Shown one piece after another: positions 30,251 through 38,350 of a stretch of DNA of 64,000 bases. The notes beneath the pieces are model-generated. The model was not told where the DNA came from, did not search any database, and saw nothing but the letters and a program-made list of their open reading frames with translations. The position numbers and the translations under genes are program-made. Each line of letters begins with the position of its first letter. Position 1 is the first letter of the stretch. The DNA is from Actinomycetes bacterium (GTDB lineage: Bacteria; Actinomycetota; Thermoleophilia; BMS3ABIN01), in NCBI GenBank assembly GCA_021791195.1, contig JAJYXB010000022.1, forward strand, positions 80,245 to 144,244, in the 5' to 3' direction.

Positions 30251-30330
30251 GGAACTTTAGGAAAGCAACGTCCCTGGTTTGGGACGCGGTTTTGGAACTT
30301 TAGGAAAGCAACGTCCCCGGTTTGGGACAG
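30251..30330. repeat. two inverted copies of the same repeat (GGAACTTTAGGAAAGCAACGTCCC), each followed by GTCCC-N6-GGGAC palindromes
   Basis: 30251..30274 and 30295..30319 are reverse complements of the 30018/30061 repeats; palindromes CGTCCCTGGTTTGGGACG (30269..30286) and GTCCCCGGTTTGGGAC (30313..30328). Confidence 0.85.
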
Positions 30331-30377
30331 GCCCCGGAGGGGGAAATCAGTCGTGGTGGCGAGTTCTGGAGCGGATC

Positions 30378-33300
30378 ATGGGCGATTGCATGGAGGGGTT
30401 TCCGGAGGCCGGCGAGCGGCTGTTTCGCATACTGGCATTTGACTGGGACGGCACCGCGGTGCCGGATCGCCATGCCGATGCCCGCCGGGTGGCCGCGGTG
30501 CTTCAGCAGCTGCTGAAGCTGGACGTGCTGGTGGCCGTCATCACCGGCACCAATTTCGAGAACATCGACCGGCAGCTTTGCTCCCTGATCCACGGTACCC
30601 ACAAGCGGCGGCTTTACGTATGCGCCAACCGTGGTTCGGAAGTTTTCGGCTTCGACATCGATGGCAATGTCACGCTGCTTTTCAGGCGGGAAGCGACACC
30701 GGACGAGAACAGGCTGCTGGACCGCATCGCCCAGGCGGTCAAAAGTGACATCGAGAGCCTGTCCAGCGTCGGCATCAACATCATCTACGACCGGCTCAAC
30801 CGCCGCAAGGTCGACCTGATCCCCGAATGGCCAGATCCGCCGAAGTCACGCATCGATGAACTGATGGCCAGAACCGAGGCGCGCCTGAAGCAGGGCGGCT
30901 ACAGCGGCGGCATCCACGGCGCCTACGAGCTGACGCTGCATTACGCCCGGCGCTTCGGCCTGAAAAACGCGCGCGTCACCAGCGACGTCAAGCACATCGA
31001 GGTGGGCCTCACCGACAAATCCGACTCGATCCGCTGGGTCATCAGCCAGCTGTGCTACCGGCGCAATATCCCCTTCCGGAACATGCTGGTGGGAGGGGAT
31101 GAGTTCGGTAATGTGGCCGGTTTCGAGGGCAGCGATTCGCACATGATCGTGCCCGAGCTCGGCGGAGATTCCTATATCGTGTCGGTGGGGAAGGAGCCTG
31201 ACGGCGTGCCGCCGGGGGTAACCCACCTGCCCGGCGGGCCCGACTGTTTCATCAGCCTGCTGGAGCGGCAGGTCGCGCTGCATCGGCTGATGCTGCCCAG
31301 CGAGGATGTGACGGCGCTGCTGGTGGAGAACGGCTTCAATCCGCTCCGGGAACGCGAGGTCGAGTCGCTGCTGGCTGTCGGCAACGGTTATCTCGGCACC
31401 CGTGGCTCGCTCGAGGAGCAGGATCCGGCGTCCAGCGCCGCCACGCTGCTGGCCGGCGTTTATGACCGGACGAGCAGGGAATCGATCGAGGAGCTTGTGG
31501 TCGTTCCTGACTGGCTGTATACGCGTATCTACGTCAATAACATCCAGCTGACCGCCGGGCGCCAGAATCTGCTGGAGCACCGGCGGGTGCTGGACATGTC
31601 CAAGGGCATGCTTTTCCGCGAGTGGCGCCACCGGGACCGGGAGAACCGCGTTACCCGCATCCGTTTCATCCGGTTCGCCTCGCTGGCGGATCCGCATCTG
31701 CTGGTGGAGCGGCTGGTGGTGGTTCCGGAGAATTACAGCGGGAAGCTGCGGGTGGAGACCGGGCTCAGGATCTGCGAGGGTTGCCCGCCCGAGCTGACCG
31801 TGACGGCCGCGGCCGGCGCCGAGCCGCCGGAAGATGAAGCGGCCAGGCGGGCGGCAGGGAGCGCGTCAGCCGGCGCGGAGCCGGAAAGCGGCGTCCGTGT
31901 CAGCGCCACCACGGTCCATACCGGCATCGCCCTGGCCCAGCGGCAGCAGAGCCGCCCCGCGGCCGGCTTCATCAACATGCGCCATTCCACTGCTGCCGGC
32001 GGTTTTGGCGCTATCGAGCGCTGGCGCTGGCGGGCGGCGGCGGGACAGCCGGTCACCATCGACAAATACGTGAGCGTCTTCACTTCGCGCGAGAGTACGG
32101 CGCCGGACCGCGAGGCGGCCGCGGCCACGGAGCGGCTGGCCGGGCTGGGCTTCCGGCCGCTTGCCCTGCAGCAGATCGGCGCCTGGCGCGACCGGCTGGC
32201 AACGGCGGCGGTCACCGTGGACGACAATGACAGCCAGCAATGGCTCAACTTCGCCCTTTATCACCTCATCAGCGCCGGGAATCCCCATGACGAGCGCAGC
32301 TCGATCAGCGCCCGCGCGCTTACCGGCTCCATTTACAAGGGACATATATTCTGGGACGCGGAGATGTTTATCCTGCCATTCTTCATCTTCACGCATCCGC
32401 CGACCGCGCGGGCGATGCTGCTGTACCGTTTCCATACGCTGGCGGCCGCCCGCGAGAATGCGCTGCGAAAGGGATATGCGGGCGCGCTGTTTGCCTGGGA
32501 AGCGACCGGCGGCGGTGAAGACATGACTCCCGCCGCCGTCGTCGATCCCCGGGGCGAGATCGTGCCGGTGCTGTCGGGCAAGCTGGAGCATCACATCAGC
32601 GCCGCGGTCGCCTGGGGCGCCTGGTCTTACTGGAATGCCAGCGGCGATGAAGGGTTCCTGGTGGGCGCCGGCGCCGAGCTGCTGATCGAAACGGCGCGCT
32701 TCTGGGCCAGCCGGGTCACCGAGGTCGATGGCAGTTTCCACATCCTCGGAGTCGAGGGCCCCGATGAATATCACGATGAAGGCGTCGATGACAACTATTA
32801 CACCAACGCCATGGCCCGCTGGAATCTGCGGCGGGCGGCGGAAGTGGTAGAGCGGCTGAAGCGTCTGCATCCGGATGAGTGGCAGCTGCTTGCCGCCAAG
32901 CTCGGCTTCGACATCGGCGAGCCCCAGCGGTGGCTGCGCGTGGCCGGCGGCATGTTCATGGGCGCCGCGGACACCGGCTCCGGCAAGAGCGCCTCGGCGG
33001 CCGGCGCGGGCGCCGCGCCGGTGGAGCAGTTTCGCGGCTACTTCGAGCTGGAGGACATCGACGTCTCCGCCTTCGGGTCCCATGTGGGACCGCTGGACGT
33101 TTTGCTCGGTCATGAACGCACGGTCGCCTCGCAGGTCGTCAAGCAGGCCGATGTGGTGATGGCGCTCTACCTGCTGGAAGAGGAGCTCGGCGCGGGCGCC
33201 ATCGAAGCCAGCTTCGATTACTACGAACCGCGAACGGTGCACGGCAGCTCGCTCTCACCCGCCATTCATGGGCTGGTGGCCGCCCGCCTGGGCCGGCTGG

Positions 33301-33725
33301 AAAACGCATGGAGCTATTTCAGCCGCGCCGCCCGCATCGACCTGGCCCACGGCAACGCCGCCGGCGGCATCCACGTCGCCGCGCTCGGCGGCCTGTGGCA
33401 GCAGGTTGTCATGGGCTTTGCCGGGGTCAGGACCAGCAGGGAGGGGGTCTTCGTCTATCCGCACCTGCCGGAGCGGTGGGGGACGATGGCTTTCACGCTG
33501 GCATGGCGCGGGCTGCAGCTCCGCTTCGCGGCCGAGCGCGGCCGCCGGCTGAGACTTGAGCTTGCCGGCGAGGGCGAGGCGATGGTGGGAATAAAAGGTT
33601 TGGAGCTGCAGGCAATGACTGGAGGCCGGAGTTACACCGCGTTCTGGCAGGGTGGCCGCTGGCAGGCCTTCTCGCCGGCAGAGGGCGCCGTAACGGCCGC
33701 CGGCATCCAGGAGGACAAGGCATGA
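30378..33725 (+). CDS. OtsB1-like fusion protein: N-terminal HAD-type trehalose-phosphatase-like domain + glycoside hydrolase family 65 (N-terminal, catalytic, C-terminal domains)
   Basis: FDWDGT HAD motif I; GH65 signatures (HIFWDAEMFILPFF, general-acid region); start moved to the ATG at 30378, downstream of the repeat array (ORF track 30279). Confidence 0.8.
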   Translation: MGDCMEGFPEAGERLFRILAFDWDGTAVPDRHADARRVAAVLQQLLKLDVLVAVITGTNFENIDRQLCSLIHGTHKRRLYVCANRGSEVFGFDIDGNVTLLFRREATPDENRLLDRIAQAVKSDIESLSSVGINIIYDRLNRRKVDLIPEWPDPPKSRIDELMARTEARLKQGGYSGGIHGAYELTLHYARRFGLKNARVTSDVKHIEVGLTDKSDSIRWVISQLCYRRNIPFRNMLVGGDEFGNVAGFEGSDSHMIVPELGGDSYIVSVGKEPDGVPPGVTHLPGGPDCFISLLERQVALHRLMLPSEDVTALLVENGFNPLREREVESLLAVGNGYLGTRGSLEEQDPASSAATLLAGVYDRTSRESIEELVVVPDWLYTRIYVNNIQLTAGRQNLLEHRRVLDMSKGMLFREWRHRDRENRVTRIRFIRFASLADPHLLVERLVVVPENYSGKLRVETGLRICEGCPPELTVTAAAGAEPPEDEAARRAAGSASAGAEPESGVRVSATTVHTGIALAQRQQSRPAAGFINMRHSTAAGGFGAIERWRWRAAAGQPVTIDKYVSVFTSRESTAPDREAAAATERLAGLGFRPLALQQIGAWRDRLATAAVTVDDNDSQQWLNFALYHLISAGNPHDERSSISARALTGSIYKGHIFWDAEMFILPFFIFTHPPTARAMLLYRFHTLAAARENALRKGYAGALFAWEATGGGEDMTPAAVVDPRGEIVPVLSGKLEHHISAAVAWGAWSYWNASGDEGFLVGAGAELLIETARFWASRVTEVDGSFHILGVEGPDEYHDEGVDDNYYTNAMARWNLRRAAEVVERLKRLHPDEWQLLAAKLGFDIGEPQRWLRVAGGMFMGAADTGSGKSASAAGAGAAPVEQFRGYFELEDIDVSAFGSHVGPLDVLLGHERTVASQVVKQADVVMALYLLEEELGAGAIEASFDYYEPRTVHGSSLSPAIHGLVAARLGRLENAWSYFSRAARIDLAHGNAAGGIHVAALGGLWQQVVMGFAGVRTSREGVFVYPHLPERWGTMAFTLAWRGLQLRFAAERGRRLRLELAGEGEAMVGIKGLELQAMTGGRSYTAFWQGGRWQAFSPAEGAVTAAGIQEDKA

Positions 33726-34582
33726 ACACCAACCGGAAGAAACCAGCGGGCAACGGGGCGGCCGTGGTCCTGCCGCTGGACGGCTCGCGCACGGCCGTGC
33801 GCGCTTTCGGCGCCGCCCGTGCGGTCACGCGGATGCTGGGCGCCCGCCTGCACGTGATCTACGTCAGCGAGAAGCCGGTGCCGGCGGCGGAGCTGCCGCG
33901 GCTGCTCCATATCGAGGCCGGAGGCGGCCGCATCCGGTTCCATCAGATTTCCGGCGAGACCGTCAGCGCCATCATCCGCTTTGCTGTCGGAGTGGACGCG
34001 AGCATGATCGTCATGTCCAGCCACGGCAGGACGCACAATACGCGGCAGATGGCCGGCGGCGTGGCCATGCGCCTGATCCAGCACACCGACATCCCGGTGA
34101 TGGTGATCCGGCCGCGCAAACAGGTGCCCGGCGCTGACTGGCGCCCGCGCCGCATGCTGGTGCCTCATGACGGCTCGCCTGTCACCGCCGGCGAAGTGGA
34201 GCAGATATTCAACCTGGCTTGTGCGATGGAGGTGGATATCGACGTGCTGCATGTGGGCATGATCGGCGCCCGGCCGCCGGTGGGGGTGGGGGCCATGGAC
34301 GGCCCGCGCTACCTGGACCGGCCGCATTATGACTGGCCCGGCTGGGCGGACGAGTTCCTGCGCCGGTTTGCCGCGCGCCCCGGTGAATCCAAGGTGCGGC
34401 TGATCTACCAACCCGGTGAGATCGTCGATGCGGCGCTCGATTACGCCGCCCAGAACCGCGACGACGTGATCGCGCTGATTTGGCACGGGATGCTGGGAGG
34501 CAAGCGGGCGGCCAGCGTCAAGGGGATCCTGATGAACGCCGAGGTGCCGGTGCTGCTGAAGCGGATCCGCGGCGGGACTTAG
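33722..34582 (+). CDS. universal stress protein (tandem UspA domains)
   Basis: Two Usp-like halves (LHVIYV..., VLHV...PVLL); start overlaps the stop of the preceding gene. Confidence 0.85.
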   Translation: MNTNRKKPAGNGAAVVLPLDGSRTAVRAFGAARAVTRMLGARLHVIYVSEKPVPAAELPRLLHIEAGGGRIRFHQISGETVSAIIRFAVGVDASMIVMSSHGRTHNTRQMAGGVAMRLIQHTDIPVMVIRPRKQVPGADWRPRRMLVPHDGSPVTAGEVEQIFNLACAMEVDIDVLHVGMIGARPPVGVGAMDGPRYLDRPHYDWPGWADEFLRRFAARPGESKVRLIYQPGEIVDAALDYAAQNRDDVIALIWHGMLGGKRAASVKGILMNAEVPVLLKRIRGGT

Positions 34583-34583
34583 G

Positions 34584-34913
34584 TCAGGAGGCCTTGCGCG
34601 CGCCCATGCGTTCGAATTCGACCAGCATGCGGCTGTAGGGTATCTCCCAGATATTGAGCAGCTTCTCGCCGATCATGAGCATGCCGGGTTCGAGCCGCCC
34701 TTCGGTCACCCGCTGGTAGACCTCCGGATACTCCTTGAGCTCCGGCGAATCGAAATCGACATACCTGAGCTTGGCGGTGCCGCCGAAATCCTCCATCAGC
34801 TGGCGGTTGATCGTTTCGGTGATCTCTTCCAGAGACCAGCTGGGGCCTCAGCCGCCAGAACAGGAGTCCAGATAGCGCGACCCGAAGACCGGGATTATTG
34901 ATTCATAAGTCAC
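34584..34913 (-). CDS. candidate selenoprotein: YuzD/DUF1462-like thioredoxin-fold protein with an in-frame UGA (Sec) codon at 34848..34850
   Basis: GGAGG SD, 8-nt spacer, GTG at 34913; translation VTYESIIPVFGSRYLDSCSGG-U-GPSWSLEEITETINRQLMEDFGG... continues in frame into the 70-aa ORF of the track; hairpin GGUCUCU-GGA-AGAGAUC (34821..34837) begins 10 nt after the UGA. Confidence 0.5.
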
Positions 34914-35027
34914 GGAAATTACCTCCTCAGATTCCCTAAGTGCTCATAAGTTTCGGTGAGCGGCCAACGATTCTTTAGACATCCGCGTCCGCTAAAAGTT
35001 TCAGAAGCGTTCAGACCCTCCGGGATT

Positions 35028-36059
35028 TTACAACCGCCGGAGCGTTTTCGCCAGCCGCCAGCCGTCGGCGCCTGTCACTTCCAGCGCCTGCTCCTCGCCA
35101 CTCTCTTCGCCGCGGCGGCGCCAGCCGACCATGATCTTCTCCTGCTCGCGCGCCTGCCCGTAGCGGGCGGTGAGCGCGGCCGCTTCGGCAAGCGCGGCGT
35201 CGTCGGCGTCCCCCTTGATGACGGCAGTGGGCCCCATCGCCGACAGCGCGCTCATGAGGACGTCACCGGGCTGCGCCAGGGCCTCCAGCCTCCTGGTCTC
35301 GTCCTCGTTGCGCGGGATGATGATCTTGCGGCCGCTGGATGAGATGAACAGCCGGCCCAGCTTCAGGGACTGGATGTCGGCCAGCGGCGGCTCGGGATCC
35401 TCGTCCAGCAGCAGCCGCAGCCGGGCGGCGAAGTTGCGGTCGCAGAGCAGGCAGCCGCCGGCGGGGCAAGGGTAGTCGTTCACGCCCAGCTCGGCCGCCA
35501 GCTGGATCTGGGGCTTGCGCGAGCGCCCTTCGATCGCCATCATCCGTTCGCGGTCCACCCAGCCTTCGCGCTCGGGCAGGCTGGGTTCGAACAGGTGTGC
35601 CGACAGTGGCCTGACGATCAGATCCTCCAGCCCGGATTCGCGCTCGATGGTGCGCATGGCGTCCGGGCGCTGCGACATCGGCCGTTCGCCCCAGACCTCG
35701 CCGGTGACGACGAAGTCAGCGCCGCTCTGCTGCATGTAGGCGCGCGCCCGCCTGAGCATGCTGATGCGGCAGTCGAGGCAGGGGTTGATGCCGCGGCCGA
35801 ATCCGTGGCGGGCATCCCTGATCGCCGCCAAAATCTCCCGGGTGGCGTTGAGCACCTTCAGCGGGATGCCGTATTCCTCGGCGGCCTTGCGCGCCTCGGA
35901 CTTGCAGCTGCTCTTGGCCGTGCAGGTGCAGAAGGCGGTAACGAAGTTGACCGCCTCCAGCCCGATGCCCTGGTCGAGCATCATCTTCACTGCCAGGCGG
36001 CTGTCCAGCCCGCCGGAGAGCAGGATGATCGCCTTGCGCTTTTTCTTTTCCATGGTCAT
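35028..36059 (-). CDS. PP-loop superfamily ATPase, Cys-rich (tRNA thiolation / sulfur-transferase type, TtuA/MnmA-like)
   Basis: N-terminal AIILLSGGLDSRLA PP-loop; CTC, NPCLDC and CPAGGCLLC cysteine clusters. Confidence 0.6.
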   Translation of the reverse strand: MTMEKKKRKAIILLSGGLDSRLAVKMMLDQGIGLEAVNFVTAFCTCTAKSSCKSEARKAAEEYGIPLKVLNATREILAAIRDARHGFGRGINPCLDCRISMLRRARAYMQQSGADFVVTGEVWGERPMSQRPDAMRTIERESGLEDLIVRPLSAHLFEPSLPEREGWVDRERMMAIEGRSRKPQIQLAAELGVNDYPCPAGGCLLCDRNFAARLRLLLDEDPEPPLADIQSLKLGRLFISSSGRKIIIPRNEDETRRLEALAQPGDVLMSALSAMGPTAVIKGDADDAALAEAAALTARYGQAREQEKIMVGWRRRGEESGEEQALEVTGADGWRLAKTLRRL

Positions 36060-36082
36060 TTTAATATATATCAGATATCTGG

Positions 36083-36595
36083 TTAAAAATCCCTGTTAGC
36101 CGGCAGCTCCCGGTCCGGCCGCCCGCGCCGGGCGAATTCCTCGTCGCTCAGCACCTCGATTCCGGCGCGCTGGAAGAGTGCGGCGGTGACGCCATCCCCC
36201 CGGCGCCGGGCGCCGCTGAAACTGCCGTCATAGATCTCGCCGCGGCCGCATGACGGACTTCTCGCTTTCAGGATGGCCTGGCGGCAGCCGTGCCGCTGCG
36301 CGATTTCCAGCGCCCGTCGCGCTCCTTCCAGAAAGCGCTCCGTGAGATCACGGCCGCTTTTGGAAACCACGCTCGCCTTGCCGTCCAGCACATCGGCGCC
36401 GTCACCGCCCTCGATCTCCGCCGTTTCCCTTGGGGTGCGCATGCCGGAGAGCTGTTCGGGGCAGACGGGGATCGCCCGCCCGTCCTCCACCAGCCTTCTG
36501 ACTGGCTCCGACAGCCGGGCGCGGCCGTCATGACTGCAGGGCATCCCGGCCGTGCAGCCGCTGACGATCATCTTTCCGGAAAGGAGCTGGCTCAT
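36083..36595 (-). CDS. DUF523 family protein (TudS-like [4Fe-4S] thionucleobase desulfidase family)
   Basis: MIVSGCTAGMPCSHDG N-terminus matches the DUF523 ILVSACLLGxxCRYDG signature; conserved Cys ligands (CPEQL, SPSCG). Confidence 0.75.
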   Translation of the reverse strand: MSQLLSGKMIVSGCTAGMPCSHDGRARLSEPVRRLVEDGRAIPVCPEQLSGMRTPRETAEIEGGDGADVLDGKASVVSKSGRDLTERFLEGARRALEIAQRHGCRQAILKARSPSCGRGEIYDGSFSGARRRGDGVTAALFQRAGIEVLSDEEFARRGRPDRELPANRDF

Positions 36596-36979
36596 CTTTG
36601 AAGAAAAGGAGAGGACAATCCTCTGATTGCAAAATAGCAGATAAGAAACTGGTAGTAAAACTCGTAAGAAAGTTGTAAATTTTCTGGCGGGCAGAGCTTG
36701 CGATTGCTATACTTTCTTATTCTTCGGCTGGGCCAAACGTTAGGCCAGGAACCGCTTTCCCGGGTTTCAGCATTTCAGAGGATGTGCCTGCGGCGGAAAA
36801 ATAAATTTTCGCGGGGGGTTTGGCAGGCGCCGGGCCGGGTATTTTATAGCCACTTTTCCGGGCATCCGTGCTGACCGGCAGAGTAAATTTGCCGCAGCGG
36901 GCGCGAGGATAATCAGCCAAACTCCGGCAGGACGGACAAACTGAGCAGAGAAGCAGCCAAACAAGCTGGGTTTCCCAAA

Positions 36980-38350
36980 GTGCACTGGCTCAAATCGCTG
37001 GCGCCGGTCAAGCTTGCGGCGCTGATCGGAGCCGCGGTGATGGCGCTGCTTATCATTGCCGCCGTCATGGCGGTCGTCGTGTTTCCTCCAGGGATATCGA
37101 TCAACCCGGGCGACAAGGCCACCGAGATCAAGCCTGCCGACCAGGGCCTGGATATCGGCACCAGCAGCTGGGGTGCTTCGATTGCCTCGGTCACCGTTAC
37201 GCAGCAGGACGTCGCTCCGGACGGCACGCTGGGCGCCAGCCGCCTCGTCAATGGCCAGCTCAAGGATGGCCATTTCGTCACCAGTGACGGCGCCAATCCG
37301 CTCAAGCCGGACGAACAGTACACCGTCACGGTCGACGGCACCGTCAAGAAGCTTGGCATCACTGGCATCAGCTCCCGGCAGGTCGAGCAGACCTCTACTT
37401 TCAGAACCGTGACGACGCCGATGCCGGTAATCCCCCAGGGCGGCCTCGTGGTCAAGTTCGGCGAGGATCTGAAGCTGCAGTGGAACGTCCCCGTCAGCAG
37501 TTTCAAATATCAGCTGGACGGCATCCAGAGCACATCGACCCTGTCTGGCGACGGGAAGACGGCGACCATCAAGCTGGCGAGCTTCGAGCAGGGCAAGAAG
37601 TACCAGCTCACGGTCACCTCCGCGACCTCGAAAAACGGCGTGGACATGAACCAGCCGATCGCCACGACCGTCAGCACGCCCGCCGGCCTCAGCGTGGCTT
37701 TCGATCCGGCTGACAACTCCAGCCGCGCCAGCACCGATGTCTATCCCACGGTGAACTTCTCCGAAGCGGTTGCGAATCCGGATGCGGCCCAGCAGTTGGT
37801 GAGCGTCGATCCCAAGGTCGGCGGCAGTTTCCACTGGGCGTCGCCGAACAAGCTGCAGTTCGTGCCGGCGAAGGAATGGGACCACCTGCAGGATGTGACC
37901 ATCCGCGTCAGGGGCGGCGTGCAGGGATTCCGGGGCGTCAGCGGCGGATATATCGACAGTGACCAGCAGGCGACTTTCACGACCGCCCCGGCCAAGTCAA
38001 TCGACGTCAACGTCACGACTGAGAGAGTGACGCTGCTGGAAAACGGAAATCCCATTGACTCATTCTTGTGCGCCAGCGGCGCCAACAACACCCCGACCCC
38101 GCTGGGTGACTTCACTATCTATGCCAAGCTGCCCGCCGTCGATATGCGAGGCCCTGGCTATTTTGCCCCGCACGTGCCCTGGGTGATGGTGTTCGACGGC
38201 GACTACACGCTGCACGGCAACTACTGGAACACGACCTTTGGTGTCAGGGGGTCAGGGGGCAGCCATGGCTGCGTGGGAATGCCTCCCGCCACCGCCAAGC
38301 GCGTTTATGACTGGGCGCCGCTCGGCACGCCGGTTCACATTCACGAATAG
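36980..38350 (+). CDS. L,D-transpeptidase with N-terminal TM anchor and Ig-like (Big) domains
   Basis: C-terminal YkuD catalytic domain with HGCVGM active-site Cys; N-terminal signal/TM. Confidence 0.8.
   Translation: MHWLKSLAPVKLAALIGAAVMALLIIAAVMAVVVFPPGISINPGDKATEIKPADQGLDIGTSSWGASIASVTVTQQDVAPDGTLGASRLVNGQLKDGHFVTSDGANPLKPDEQYTVTVDGTVKKLGITGISSRQVEQTSTFRTVTTPMPVIPQGGLVVKFGEDLKLQWNVPVSSFKYQLDGIQSTSTLSGDGKTATIKLASFEQGKKYQLTVTSATSKNGVDMNQPIATTVSTPAGLSVAFDPADNSSRASTDVYPTVNFSEAVANPDAAQQLVSVDPKVGGSFHWASPNKLQFVPAKEWDHLQDVTIRVRGGVQGFRGVSGGYIDSDQQATFTTAPAKSIDVNVTTERVTLLENGNPIDSFLCASGANNTPTPLGDFTIYAKLPAVDMRGPGYFAPHVPWVMVFDGDYTLHGNYWNTTFGVRGSGGSHGCVGMPPATAKRVYDWAPLGTPVHIHE

Follow-up and report, generated by a model that had tools for sequence, protein, structure and literature searches.

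We analysed a stretch of 64,000 nucleotides from an Actinomycetes bacterium of the Thermoleophilia (assembly GCA_021791195.1, contig JAJYXB010000022.1, positions 80,245 to 144,244 of the forward strand), hereafter the window, with a focus on three co-directional minus-strand open reading frames (ORFs) at 34584-36595, which encode a DUF523 protein related to the desulfidase TudS, a PP-loop ATPase, and a small protein containing a predicted selenocysteine (Sec). The coordinates of the genes and the intergenic gaps of 23 nt and 114 nt agree with those given in a first-pass annotation made from the sequence alone, which had interpreted the cluster as a module for thio- or seleno-nucleoside metabolism. 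The host is an uncultured soil/sediment actinobacterium, proteins of the locus match the Thermoleophilia metagenome-assembled genome entries ACYCXU_08910 and ACYCXU_08915 (NCBI), and the surrounding window is of ordinary chromosomal, housekeeping character (including DnaE, riboflavin synthesis genes, RecG, PFK, TrpF/TrpB and G6PD). The locus comprises the following features:

36083..36595, minus strand: TudS-type DUF523 [4Fe-4S] desulfidase homologue, 170 aa, with the PF04463 domain at residues 10-153 (36137..36568)
35028..36059, minus strand: ThiI-like PP-loop ATPase with a C-terminal NFACT-R_2 domain (PF02568, PF18297), 343 aa, a predicted tRNA sulfurtransferase
36000..36017, minus strand: SGGLDS PP-loop motif, residues 15-20 of the ATPase, invariant in 23 homologues
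35097..35357, minus strand: NFACT-R_2 domain of the PP-loop protein, residues 235-321, from Pfam and PDB profile searches
34976..35004, minus strand: promoter-like motif CTGAAA-N17-TGTCTA in the PP-loop/selenoprotein spacer, from an alignment of 17 spacers
34584..34913, minus strand: small selenoprotein gene, 109 aa including Sec22 in the motif C18-S-G-G-U22, from reading of the DNA and from homologues
34848..34850, minus strand: in-frame TGA at codon 22, predicted Sec, with an aligned TGA in 21 homologous genes
34819..34841, minus strand: invariant 23-nt block AGCUGGUCUCUGGAAGAGAUCAC resembling a selenocysteine insertion sequence (SECIS), with a hairpin at 34838..34820 (8 bp, GGA loop)

The product of the DUF523 gene is homologous to TudS-type [4Fe-4S] desulfidases and is predicted to be active as one, as had been proposed from the sequence alone. 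It matches PF04463 at 137.7 bits (gathering cutoff 34.7, E 3.4e-40) and the solved TudS structure 6z92/6z96 over its full length (E 9.6e-26), while its Cys14, Cys45 and Cys116 align with the [4Fe-4S] ligands Cys10, Cys43 and Cys104 of TudS, and its Glu47, Ser113 and Ser115 with the catalytic Glu45, Ser101 and Ser103. TudS is a recycler of 4-thio-UMP, in which the cysteines hold the cluster, the Glu/Ser/Ser residues are catalytic, and Arg17 touches, in docking models, the 4-thio-UMP phosphate (PMC10611767). The locus protein shares with TudS a stand-alone domain and all of the cluster and catalytic residues, but the phosphate-contacting Arg17, associated with a preference for 4-thio-UMP, is replaced by Ser21 (36533-36535), inside a PCSHDG motif that also adds Cys20 and is common to all five DUF523 genes of the subclade (the window and its four closest orthologues). 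The more distant PP-loop-adjoining DUF523 protein at locus L006 retains the arginine (TRYDG). Given the loss of Arg17, the substrate may be a base or nucleoside rather than 4-thio-UMP, and so may differ from that of the characterised TudS. RudS, in which TudS is joined to DUF1722, is a tRNA 4-thiouridine (s4U) eraser (PMC11417400); the locus protein differs in having no DUF1722 domain, and hence is not a RudS. A Sec-containing DUF523 protein is known from another bacterium (deep-Sep paper, PMC12013277), and no in-frame TGA is present in the DUF523 gene of the locus.

The central protein combines a ThiI-like PP-loop domain with a C-terminal NFACT-R_2 domain. Its N-terminal part matches PF02568 (ThiI) at 40.3 bits (cutoff 20.5, E 3.4e-10, residues 8-152) and its C-terminus matches PF18297 (NFACT-R_2) at 63.9 bits (cutoff 26.9, E 1.7e-17, residues 235-321), and profile searches of the PDB place ThiI (2c5s/4kr6, approximately 5e-9) ahead of MnmA (8e-7) for the first domain and return the NFACT-R domain of RqcH as the best match (3.5e-9) for the second. 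The NCBIfam equivalogs score far under their cutoffs (ThiI 38.2 vs 264.5, MnmA 29.8 vs 284, LarE 20.2 vs 150, QueC 16.6 vs 150.3, with NadE likewise far below), and no hit to TtuA was obtained. The first-pass annotation had described this protein as TtuA/MnmA-like and had proposed its assignment with hidden Markov models (HMMs); the outcome is instead a ThiI-like protein bearing an NFACT-R_2 domain, which had gone unrecognised, with the QueC, LarE, MnmA and NadE models all well short of their cutoffs. An AlphaFold2 model of the protein (predicted local distance difference test, pLDDT, 83.8) does not discriminate further, as Foldseek matches to ThiI, MnmA, LarE (including [4Fe-4S] LarE) and TtuA all lie at about 1e-7.

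The SGGxDS motif and the CxC/CxxC/CPxGGCxxC clusters noticed earlier are indeed present, as FC44TC46T, NPC94LDC97R and YPC198PAGGC203LLC206, and are accompanied by a GRxRxxQ motif (GRSRKPQ, residues 178-184); all of these show little or no variation among 23 homologues, with the exception of C206. We know of no counterpart in ThiI for C44, C46 and C198. Pfam searches of the protein return the PP-loop and NFACT-R_2 families and no others; THUMP and rhodanese domains are absent. This two-domain architecture is widespread, being found in at least 7,979 homologue clusters and at least 584 confirmed loci among species-representative genomes, and members from Deltaproteobacteria, Omnitrophota and Planctomycetota are approximately 50% identical to the window protein from end to end. 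It corresponds to the ‘ThiI+DUF814’ family of Burroughs & Aravind (2014), for which those authors predicted tRNA 4-thiouridine synthase activity without a THUMP domain, reporting that it and canonical THUMP-ThiI exclude each other and that it usually adjoins TusA, the sole neighbour conserved across diverse bacteria, with IscS or IscU in some genomes (PMC4075521). The locus protein has the same two domains, the SGGxDS motif, the CxxC and downstream Cys, the GRxRxxQ motif and the lack of THUMP and rhodanese domains, but its gene has no adjacent TusA (none occurs among the genes flanking the locus), lying instead between a TudS homologue on the 5' side and a Sec-containing thioredoxin-fold protein on the 3' side. 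A further difference is the extra Cys206 (window 35441-35452) of most clade members, which converts GGC203-L-L-T to C203-x-x-C206: 16 of the 18 PP-loop genes next to a selenoprotein gene encode it, against none of the 48 that lack this neighbour. As regards the earlier view that the three-gene combination matched no recognisable module, the PP-loop architecture was already described in 2014 (PMC4075521), while the TudS junction and the placement of the selenoprotein are apparently undescribed.

Gene neighbourhoods in the wider family were surveyed at the 80 genome loci that match the PP-loop gene best, 3 of which have TusA-like ORFs nearby. A LarE-family gene (TIGR00268, E 7e-101) stands immediately 3' of the ThiI+NFACT-R gene at 22 of the 80 loci (e.g. 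L005, L007, L010, L019, L028, L030, L040, L042 and L077:5036-5896). These loci belong to Deltaproteobacteria/Thermodesulfobacteriota and to other phyla; the stop codon of the first gene often overlaps the start of the second, and at several loci a second ThiI+NFACT-R paralogue follows the LarE gene. This arrangement suggests a conserved multi-PP-loop sulfur-transfer operon in other phyla. Additional recurrent neighbours include cysteine desulfurase, HcyBio with a ferredoxin-like protein, Thi4, ThiH-like, Rrf2, cysteine-synthase-like, 3'-phosphoadenosine 5'-phosphosulfate (PAPS) reductase, Prok-JAB and sulfite-reductase-like genes, and the neighbourhood of the wider family is a sulfur-mobilisation context.

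The third gene is strongly supported as a real selenoprotein gene with a SECIS-like element, and Sec incorporation is predicted from the following features. An annotated-style ORF covers only 34584..34796, yet the frame continues upstream of this, past the TGA (34850-34848), as far as a GTG at 34913 that has GGAGG in front of it (34926-34922). TGA further serves as the terminator of this gene, and consequently the codon is not generally reassigned. In 21 homologous genes the in-frame TGA occupies one position of the alignment, flanked to either side by coding sequence that is conserved (FGSRxLDSC-x(2-4)-G-U-GPSWSLEEIT in the DNA of 21 loci). The sole Cys homologue found, copy a of a tandem pair at locus L081 (= P0002), has TGT at the Sec codon, and although P0140 (L096:94-432) is listed with Trp at this position, the contig DNA there reads TGA. 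Among 12 genes tabulated, a single codon is used at each of the seven positions spanning +3 to +9 past the TGA (S W S L E E I), and ten invariant residues lying upstream are written with two to five codons each. The hairpin, with its 8-bp stem and GGA loop, begins 9 nt after the UGA and is present in the minimum free energy fold; over 20 sequences pairing is kept in 98.8% of cells, four changes being one-sided and one, in L096, compensatory (G-C to A-U), and in the Cys paralogue the GG of the loop is gone and a C-A mismatch appears. Folding energy does not set apart the 63 nt that follow the UGA (minimum free energy z -0.27, not significant), so that the argument for a SECIS rests on conservation. 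An Rfam scan of 34300-37100 (E≤1) returned no RNA family, and no sel genes, tRNA-Sec or other tRNAs were found within the 64-kb window. The suggestion of a putative Sec in the first-pass annotation is thus borne out by 21 TGA-keeping genes, a Cys paralogue and a hairpin invariant at synonymous sites.

Homologues of the small protein are few, numbering 18 in a collection of 5.8 billion proteins and 11 among 1.84 billion representatives. The public calls P0001, P0003, P0004 and P0125-P0139 are 45-90 aa in length, are labelled ‘hypothetical protein’ and begin downstream of the TGA (the exceptions being P0002 and P0140), and all publicly called members end in (K/R/T/S)-(A/S)-S. At L081, the tandem paralogues (L081:575-913 and L081:1132-1257) follow the PP-loop gene, the first copy having Cys (CSGGCG) and a degraded hairpin, and the second having Sec (CASGGU, C-x4-U), an intact hairpin and its own promoter motif, with a terminator-like hairpin before it. 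The homologue at L096:94-432 is distant (38% identity) and is encoded on a low-GC sediment contig, where the TGA is followed by a covarying hairpin (AAUCUC-AGGAA-GAGAUU) and the next gene resembles crcB; given its presence in a low-GC organism, the selenoprotein family is not strictly confined to Thermoleophilia.

No significant match to Pfam, NCBIfam or PDB sequences was found for the small protein. We modelled its Cys paralogue P0002, rather than the window protein, with AlphaFold2 (pLDDT 83, predicted template modelling score 0.71), obtaining elements in the order beta-alpha-beta-alpha-beta-beta-alpha, where the redox motif joins beta-1 to alpha-1 and the C-x3-C/U loop itself has a pLDDT below 50. 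Nearly all of the top 50 Foldseek matches of this model in the PDB are thioredoxins, glutaredoxins or protein disulfide isomerases, at weak scores (E 0.02-0.4, template modelling score approximately 0.4). Judged by the model, ‘thioredoxin-fold redox selenoprotein’ is a reasonable label, in line with the fold first suggested for this protein.

The further suggestion that the protein is YuzD-like, and belongs to DUF1462, fares less evenly: none of six members of the small-protein family hits the PF07315 (DUF1462) HMM at E≤10, so that membership of DUF1462 is not established, while profile comparison gives the likeness to YuzD weak support (Prob 52%). This comparison, made with hhalign against a sequence that we take to be YuzD (it matches PF07315 at E 2.4e-45), is borderline at Prob 51.6% with a pairwise E of 1.5e-4; the alignment runs through 101 colinear columns and pairs Sec22 with the second cysteine in the CxxC of YuzD. 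The two proteins are of comparable length and share the same order of secondary structures, but the small protein differs in having Sec, its redox motif being C-x3-U, or in some members C-x4-U, within a loop that is rich in Gly and modelled with low confidence. Neither YuzD nor DUF1462 nor Thermoleophilia is mentioned in two recent selenoproteome papers. A possible functional analogy, and no more, can be drawn with TusA and rhodanese, as the small protein is likewise a single-domain protein with a reactive chalcogen after beta-1 and adjoins a ThiI-type gene, although it has another fold and two redox residues, one of them Sec. Homology to TusA itself was rejected (hhalign Prob 0.1%), as was homology to ArsD (no Pfam hit, and only 7 columns aligned by hhalign).

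To examine gene order among close relatives, we used a Thermoleophilia-clade sample composed of 7 metagenome loci reached via the small protein, 9 PP-loop homologues, and P0002 and P0140. The PP-loop gene is followed by the small Sec gene at 20 of 20 clade loci with a visible upstream flank. Moreover, this pair survives rearrangements on both sides, namely insertion of DUF523 and exchange of downstream genes, as well as the tandem duplication of the small gene at L081. The full trio, in the order DUF523, PP-loop, small gene, is found in the window and at L089, L090, L091 and L094, all within a narrow subclade of Thermoleophilia, and at L089, L091 and L094 the DUF523 stop codon overlaps the PP-loop start. 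Elsewhere the partners are rare: among the 80 genome loci the small gene accompanies the PP-loop gene at 4, which are the four closest (Thermoleophilia/Gaiellales), and DUF523 is nearby at 2 (L006 and L039); 76 of the 80 were counted as having neither. The neighbourhood analysis called for in the first-pass annotation therefore does not bear out a broadly co-conserved trio, which is restricted to five closely related loci and whose partners do not recur in other phyla. At L006, DUF523 lies directly 5' of the PP-loop gene, and the sister locus L097 is without it. In a neighbour-joining tree the DUF523-bearing loci are nested inside the clade with the small gene and L006 is sister to L097, from which it follows that DUF523 arrived directly 5' on no fewer than two occasions or, failing that, underwent repeated loss.

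Downstream of the selenoprotein gene, the DUF523-bearing loci (window 30279-34582, L090, L091 and L094) carry a universal stress protein gene and a gene for a HAD-fused GH65 protein of 1,100-1,160 aa, and loci without DUF523 carry PFK or an M50 peptidase; this co-distribution indicates that the two rearrangements mark one subclade. In the spacer between the PP-loop and selenoprotein genes, a TCCGAA box is conserved downstream of the promoter-like motif in the window and 16 other loci. A scan with consensus promoter and terminator models found no terminator between the three genes, and also missed the weak promoter-like motif of the window spacer. Judging from the spacer alignment, the selenoprotein gene probably has its own sigma-70-like promoter, with a 5' leader of approximately 60-90 nt.

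What the analysis shows are the families to which the proteins belong, their catalytic motifs, the signals for Sec recoding and the patterns of conservation. The interpretation that we consider most likely, at a probability of roughly one half, is that the cluster is a thiouridine-metabolism locus, consisting of a ThiI/NFACT-R thiolase, a co-transcribed TudS-type salvage enzyme and a Sec-containing thioredoxin-like reductant or relay. Under such a scheme, the NFACT-R domain would hold tRNA, and the protein's PP-loop domain would adenylate a uridine, most likely U8, with sulfur delivered at the site formed by Cys94, Cys97 and Cys203, which, by analogy with the cluster-dependent ThiI, TtuA and LarE, probably binds a [4Fe-4S] cluster. 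The DUF523 gene probably shares a transcript with the PP-loop gene, and its product would remove the sulfur of thiolated uracil compounds that tRNA turnover sets free. The small selenoprotein, which has a flexible C-x3-U loop, may be dedicated to the PP-loop enzyme, as its reductant or as a relay of sulfane sulfur. We infer the s4U product, the Fe-S cluster, and the physical or functional link to the selenoprotein. With other ThiI enzymes, this relay or reductant role is one that TusA or rhodanese is proposed to fill. Going further, a Sec relay (via a selenosulfide or persulfide) or reductant might replace TusA or rhodanese altogether in ThiI/NFACT-R thiolation, with the Arg-less TudS closing a cycle of writing and salvage, an extension that we consider unlikely as it stands.

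Additionally, TudS-family genes occur without canonical ThiI in some organisms, for which ThiI homologues of a different architecture have been suggested (PMC11417400), and the presence of a TudS homologue next to a ThiI/NFACT-R gene here fits this idea. Of the thio- or seleno-nucleoside module originally envisaged, the thio part is retained, as the TudS and ThiI-type/NFACT-R families are both tied to thiouridine, but nothing was found to support seleno-nucleosides. Seleno-nucleoside chemistry was rejected, given that no rhodanese domain of the SelU/MnmH type is present and that the Sec lies in the redox motif of a small carrier-like protein.

Several observations weigh against a thiouridine-metabolism locus, and a number of these also speak for a rival view in which no functional module exists, the cluster reflecting local synteny and one insertion, with the selenoprotein a general thiol/selenol oxidoreductase expressed from its own promoter and DUF523 an ordinary thiouracil salvage enzyme that is a neighbour by chance. 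The region is syntenic throughout the clade (TrpB-TrpF-CorA-L,D-transpeptidase, PP-loop, small gene, M50/PFK), and the spacer motif, with the consensus TTGAAT-N17-TATCTA in relatives, is conserved across 17 spacers while its surroundings are not. Synteny and a separate promoter motif together make the adjacency of the selenoprotein weaker evidence of coupling, and it could represent inherited gene order with independent transcription. The Sec homologue at L096 lies between an upstream promoter-like motif and a downstream terminator-like hairpin, and no PP-loop gene is visible within the 93 nt available upstream of it. With respect to DUF523, 15 clade loci with a visible upstream flank have a divergent L,D-transpeptidase gene directly upstream and no DUF523, the trio is limited to a narrow subclade, and L006 and L039 alone among the 80 genome loci have DUF523 nearby. 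We nevertheless regard the absence of any module as less likely, as DUF523 lies directly 5' and co-directional in two separate lineages, with stop/start overlap at three loci, the PP-loop/selenoprotein pair outlasts flanking rearrangements and the L081 duplication, and Cys206 co-occurs with the small gene, although this last correlation may stem from a single evolutionary event. Two further points count against the thiouridine interpretation, namely that the Foldseek matches of the small protein are weak (E 0.02-0.4), and that we found no experimental study of the ThiI+NFACT-R family in the literature.

A second alternative accepts a functional connection but holds that the PP-loop/NFACT-R enzyme thiolates something other than tRNA U8, such as another RNA position or a thiamine- or cofactor-type molecule, which the selenoprotein and DUF523 would then serve. 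The scores of tRNA-thiolase equivalogs (ThiI 38 vs 264, MnmA 30 vs 284), the inability of Foldseek to separate ThiI, MnmA, LarE and TtuA, and the extra conserved C44, C46 and C198 are compatible with this, as are the neighbours seen in other phyla (LarE at 22 of 80 loci, Thi4, ThiH-like, HcyBio and cysteine desulfurase), among which Thi4, ThiH-like and LarE also fit a non-tRNA cofactor function and to that extent tell against a thiouridine role. However, NFACT-R is a tRNA/RNA-binding module whose best match here is RqcH, ThiI proteins are the nearest sequence relatives of the PP-loop domain, the family is reported to be mutually exclusive with THUMP-ThiI (PMC4075521), and a TudS neighbour fits uracil thiolation, such that we judge a target of this kind unlikely. 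Finally, the in-frame TGA might not encode Sec at all, the small gene being a pseudogene, two ORFs or a case of some other readthrough, as the lack of sel genes and tRNA-Sec in the window and the public annotation of only the portion 3' of the TGA (save in P0002 and P0140) might imply. This is very improbable in view of the retention of the TGA by 21 homologues with strongly conserved protein sequence on either side, a paralogue with Cys at exactly that codon, a 23-nt block invariant at synonymous sites that forms a hairpin at the distance expected of a SECIS and shows one compensatory change, and the use of TGA as terminator by the same gene.

Of the components of the locus, TudS and the PP-loop/NFACT-R family are already known, the latter by prediction only. 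As far as we have found, the selenoprotein family, its SECIS and its placement beside ThiI/NFACT-R genes are undescribed in the literature, and the repeated junction of TudS with ThiI/NFACT-R likewise appears undescribed, the TudS and RudS papers that we examined containing no description of linkage to a thiouridine synthase gene. ThiI+NFACT-R is the predicted s4U synthase of many anaerobes and constitutes a very large family, and the placement of TudS directly 5' of its gene on two independent occasions provides contextual evidence for its thiouridine assignment. Furthermore, owing to its invariance at synonymous sites, the SECIS is unusually clear, and should be useful for annotation pipelines and for surveys of the Actinomycetota selenoproteome. 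If the selenoprotein does serve the PP-loop enzyme, it would establish a new connection between selenium use and the sulfur modification of tRNA, and if a Sec relay or reductant replaces TusA or rhodanese, this would be the first selenoprotein-dependent tRNA thiolation system.

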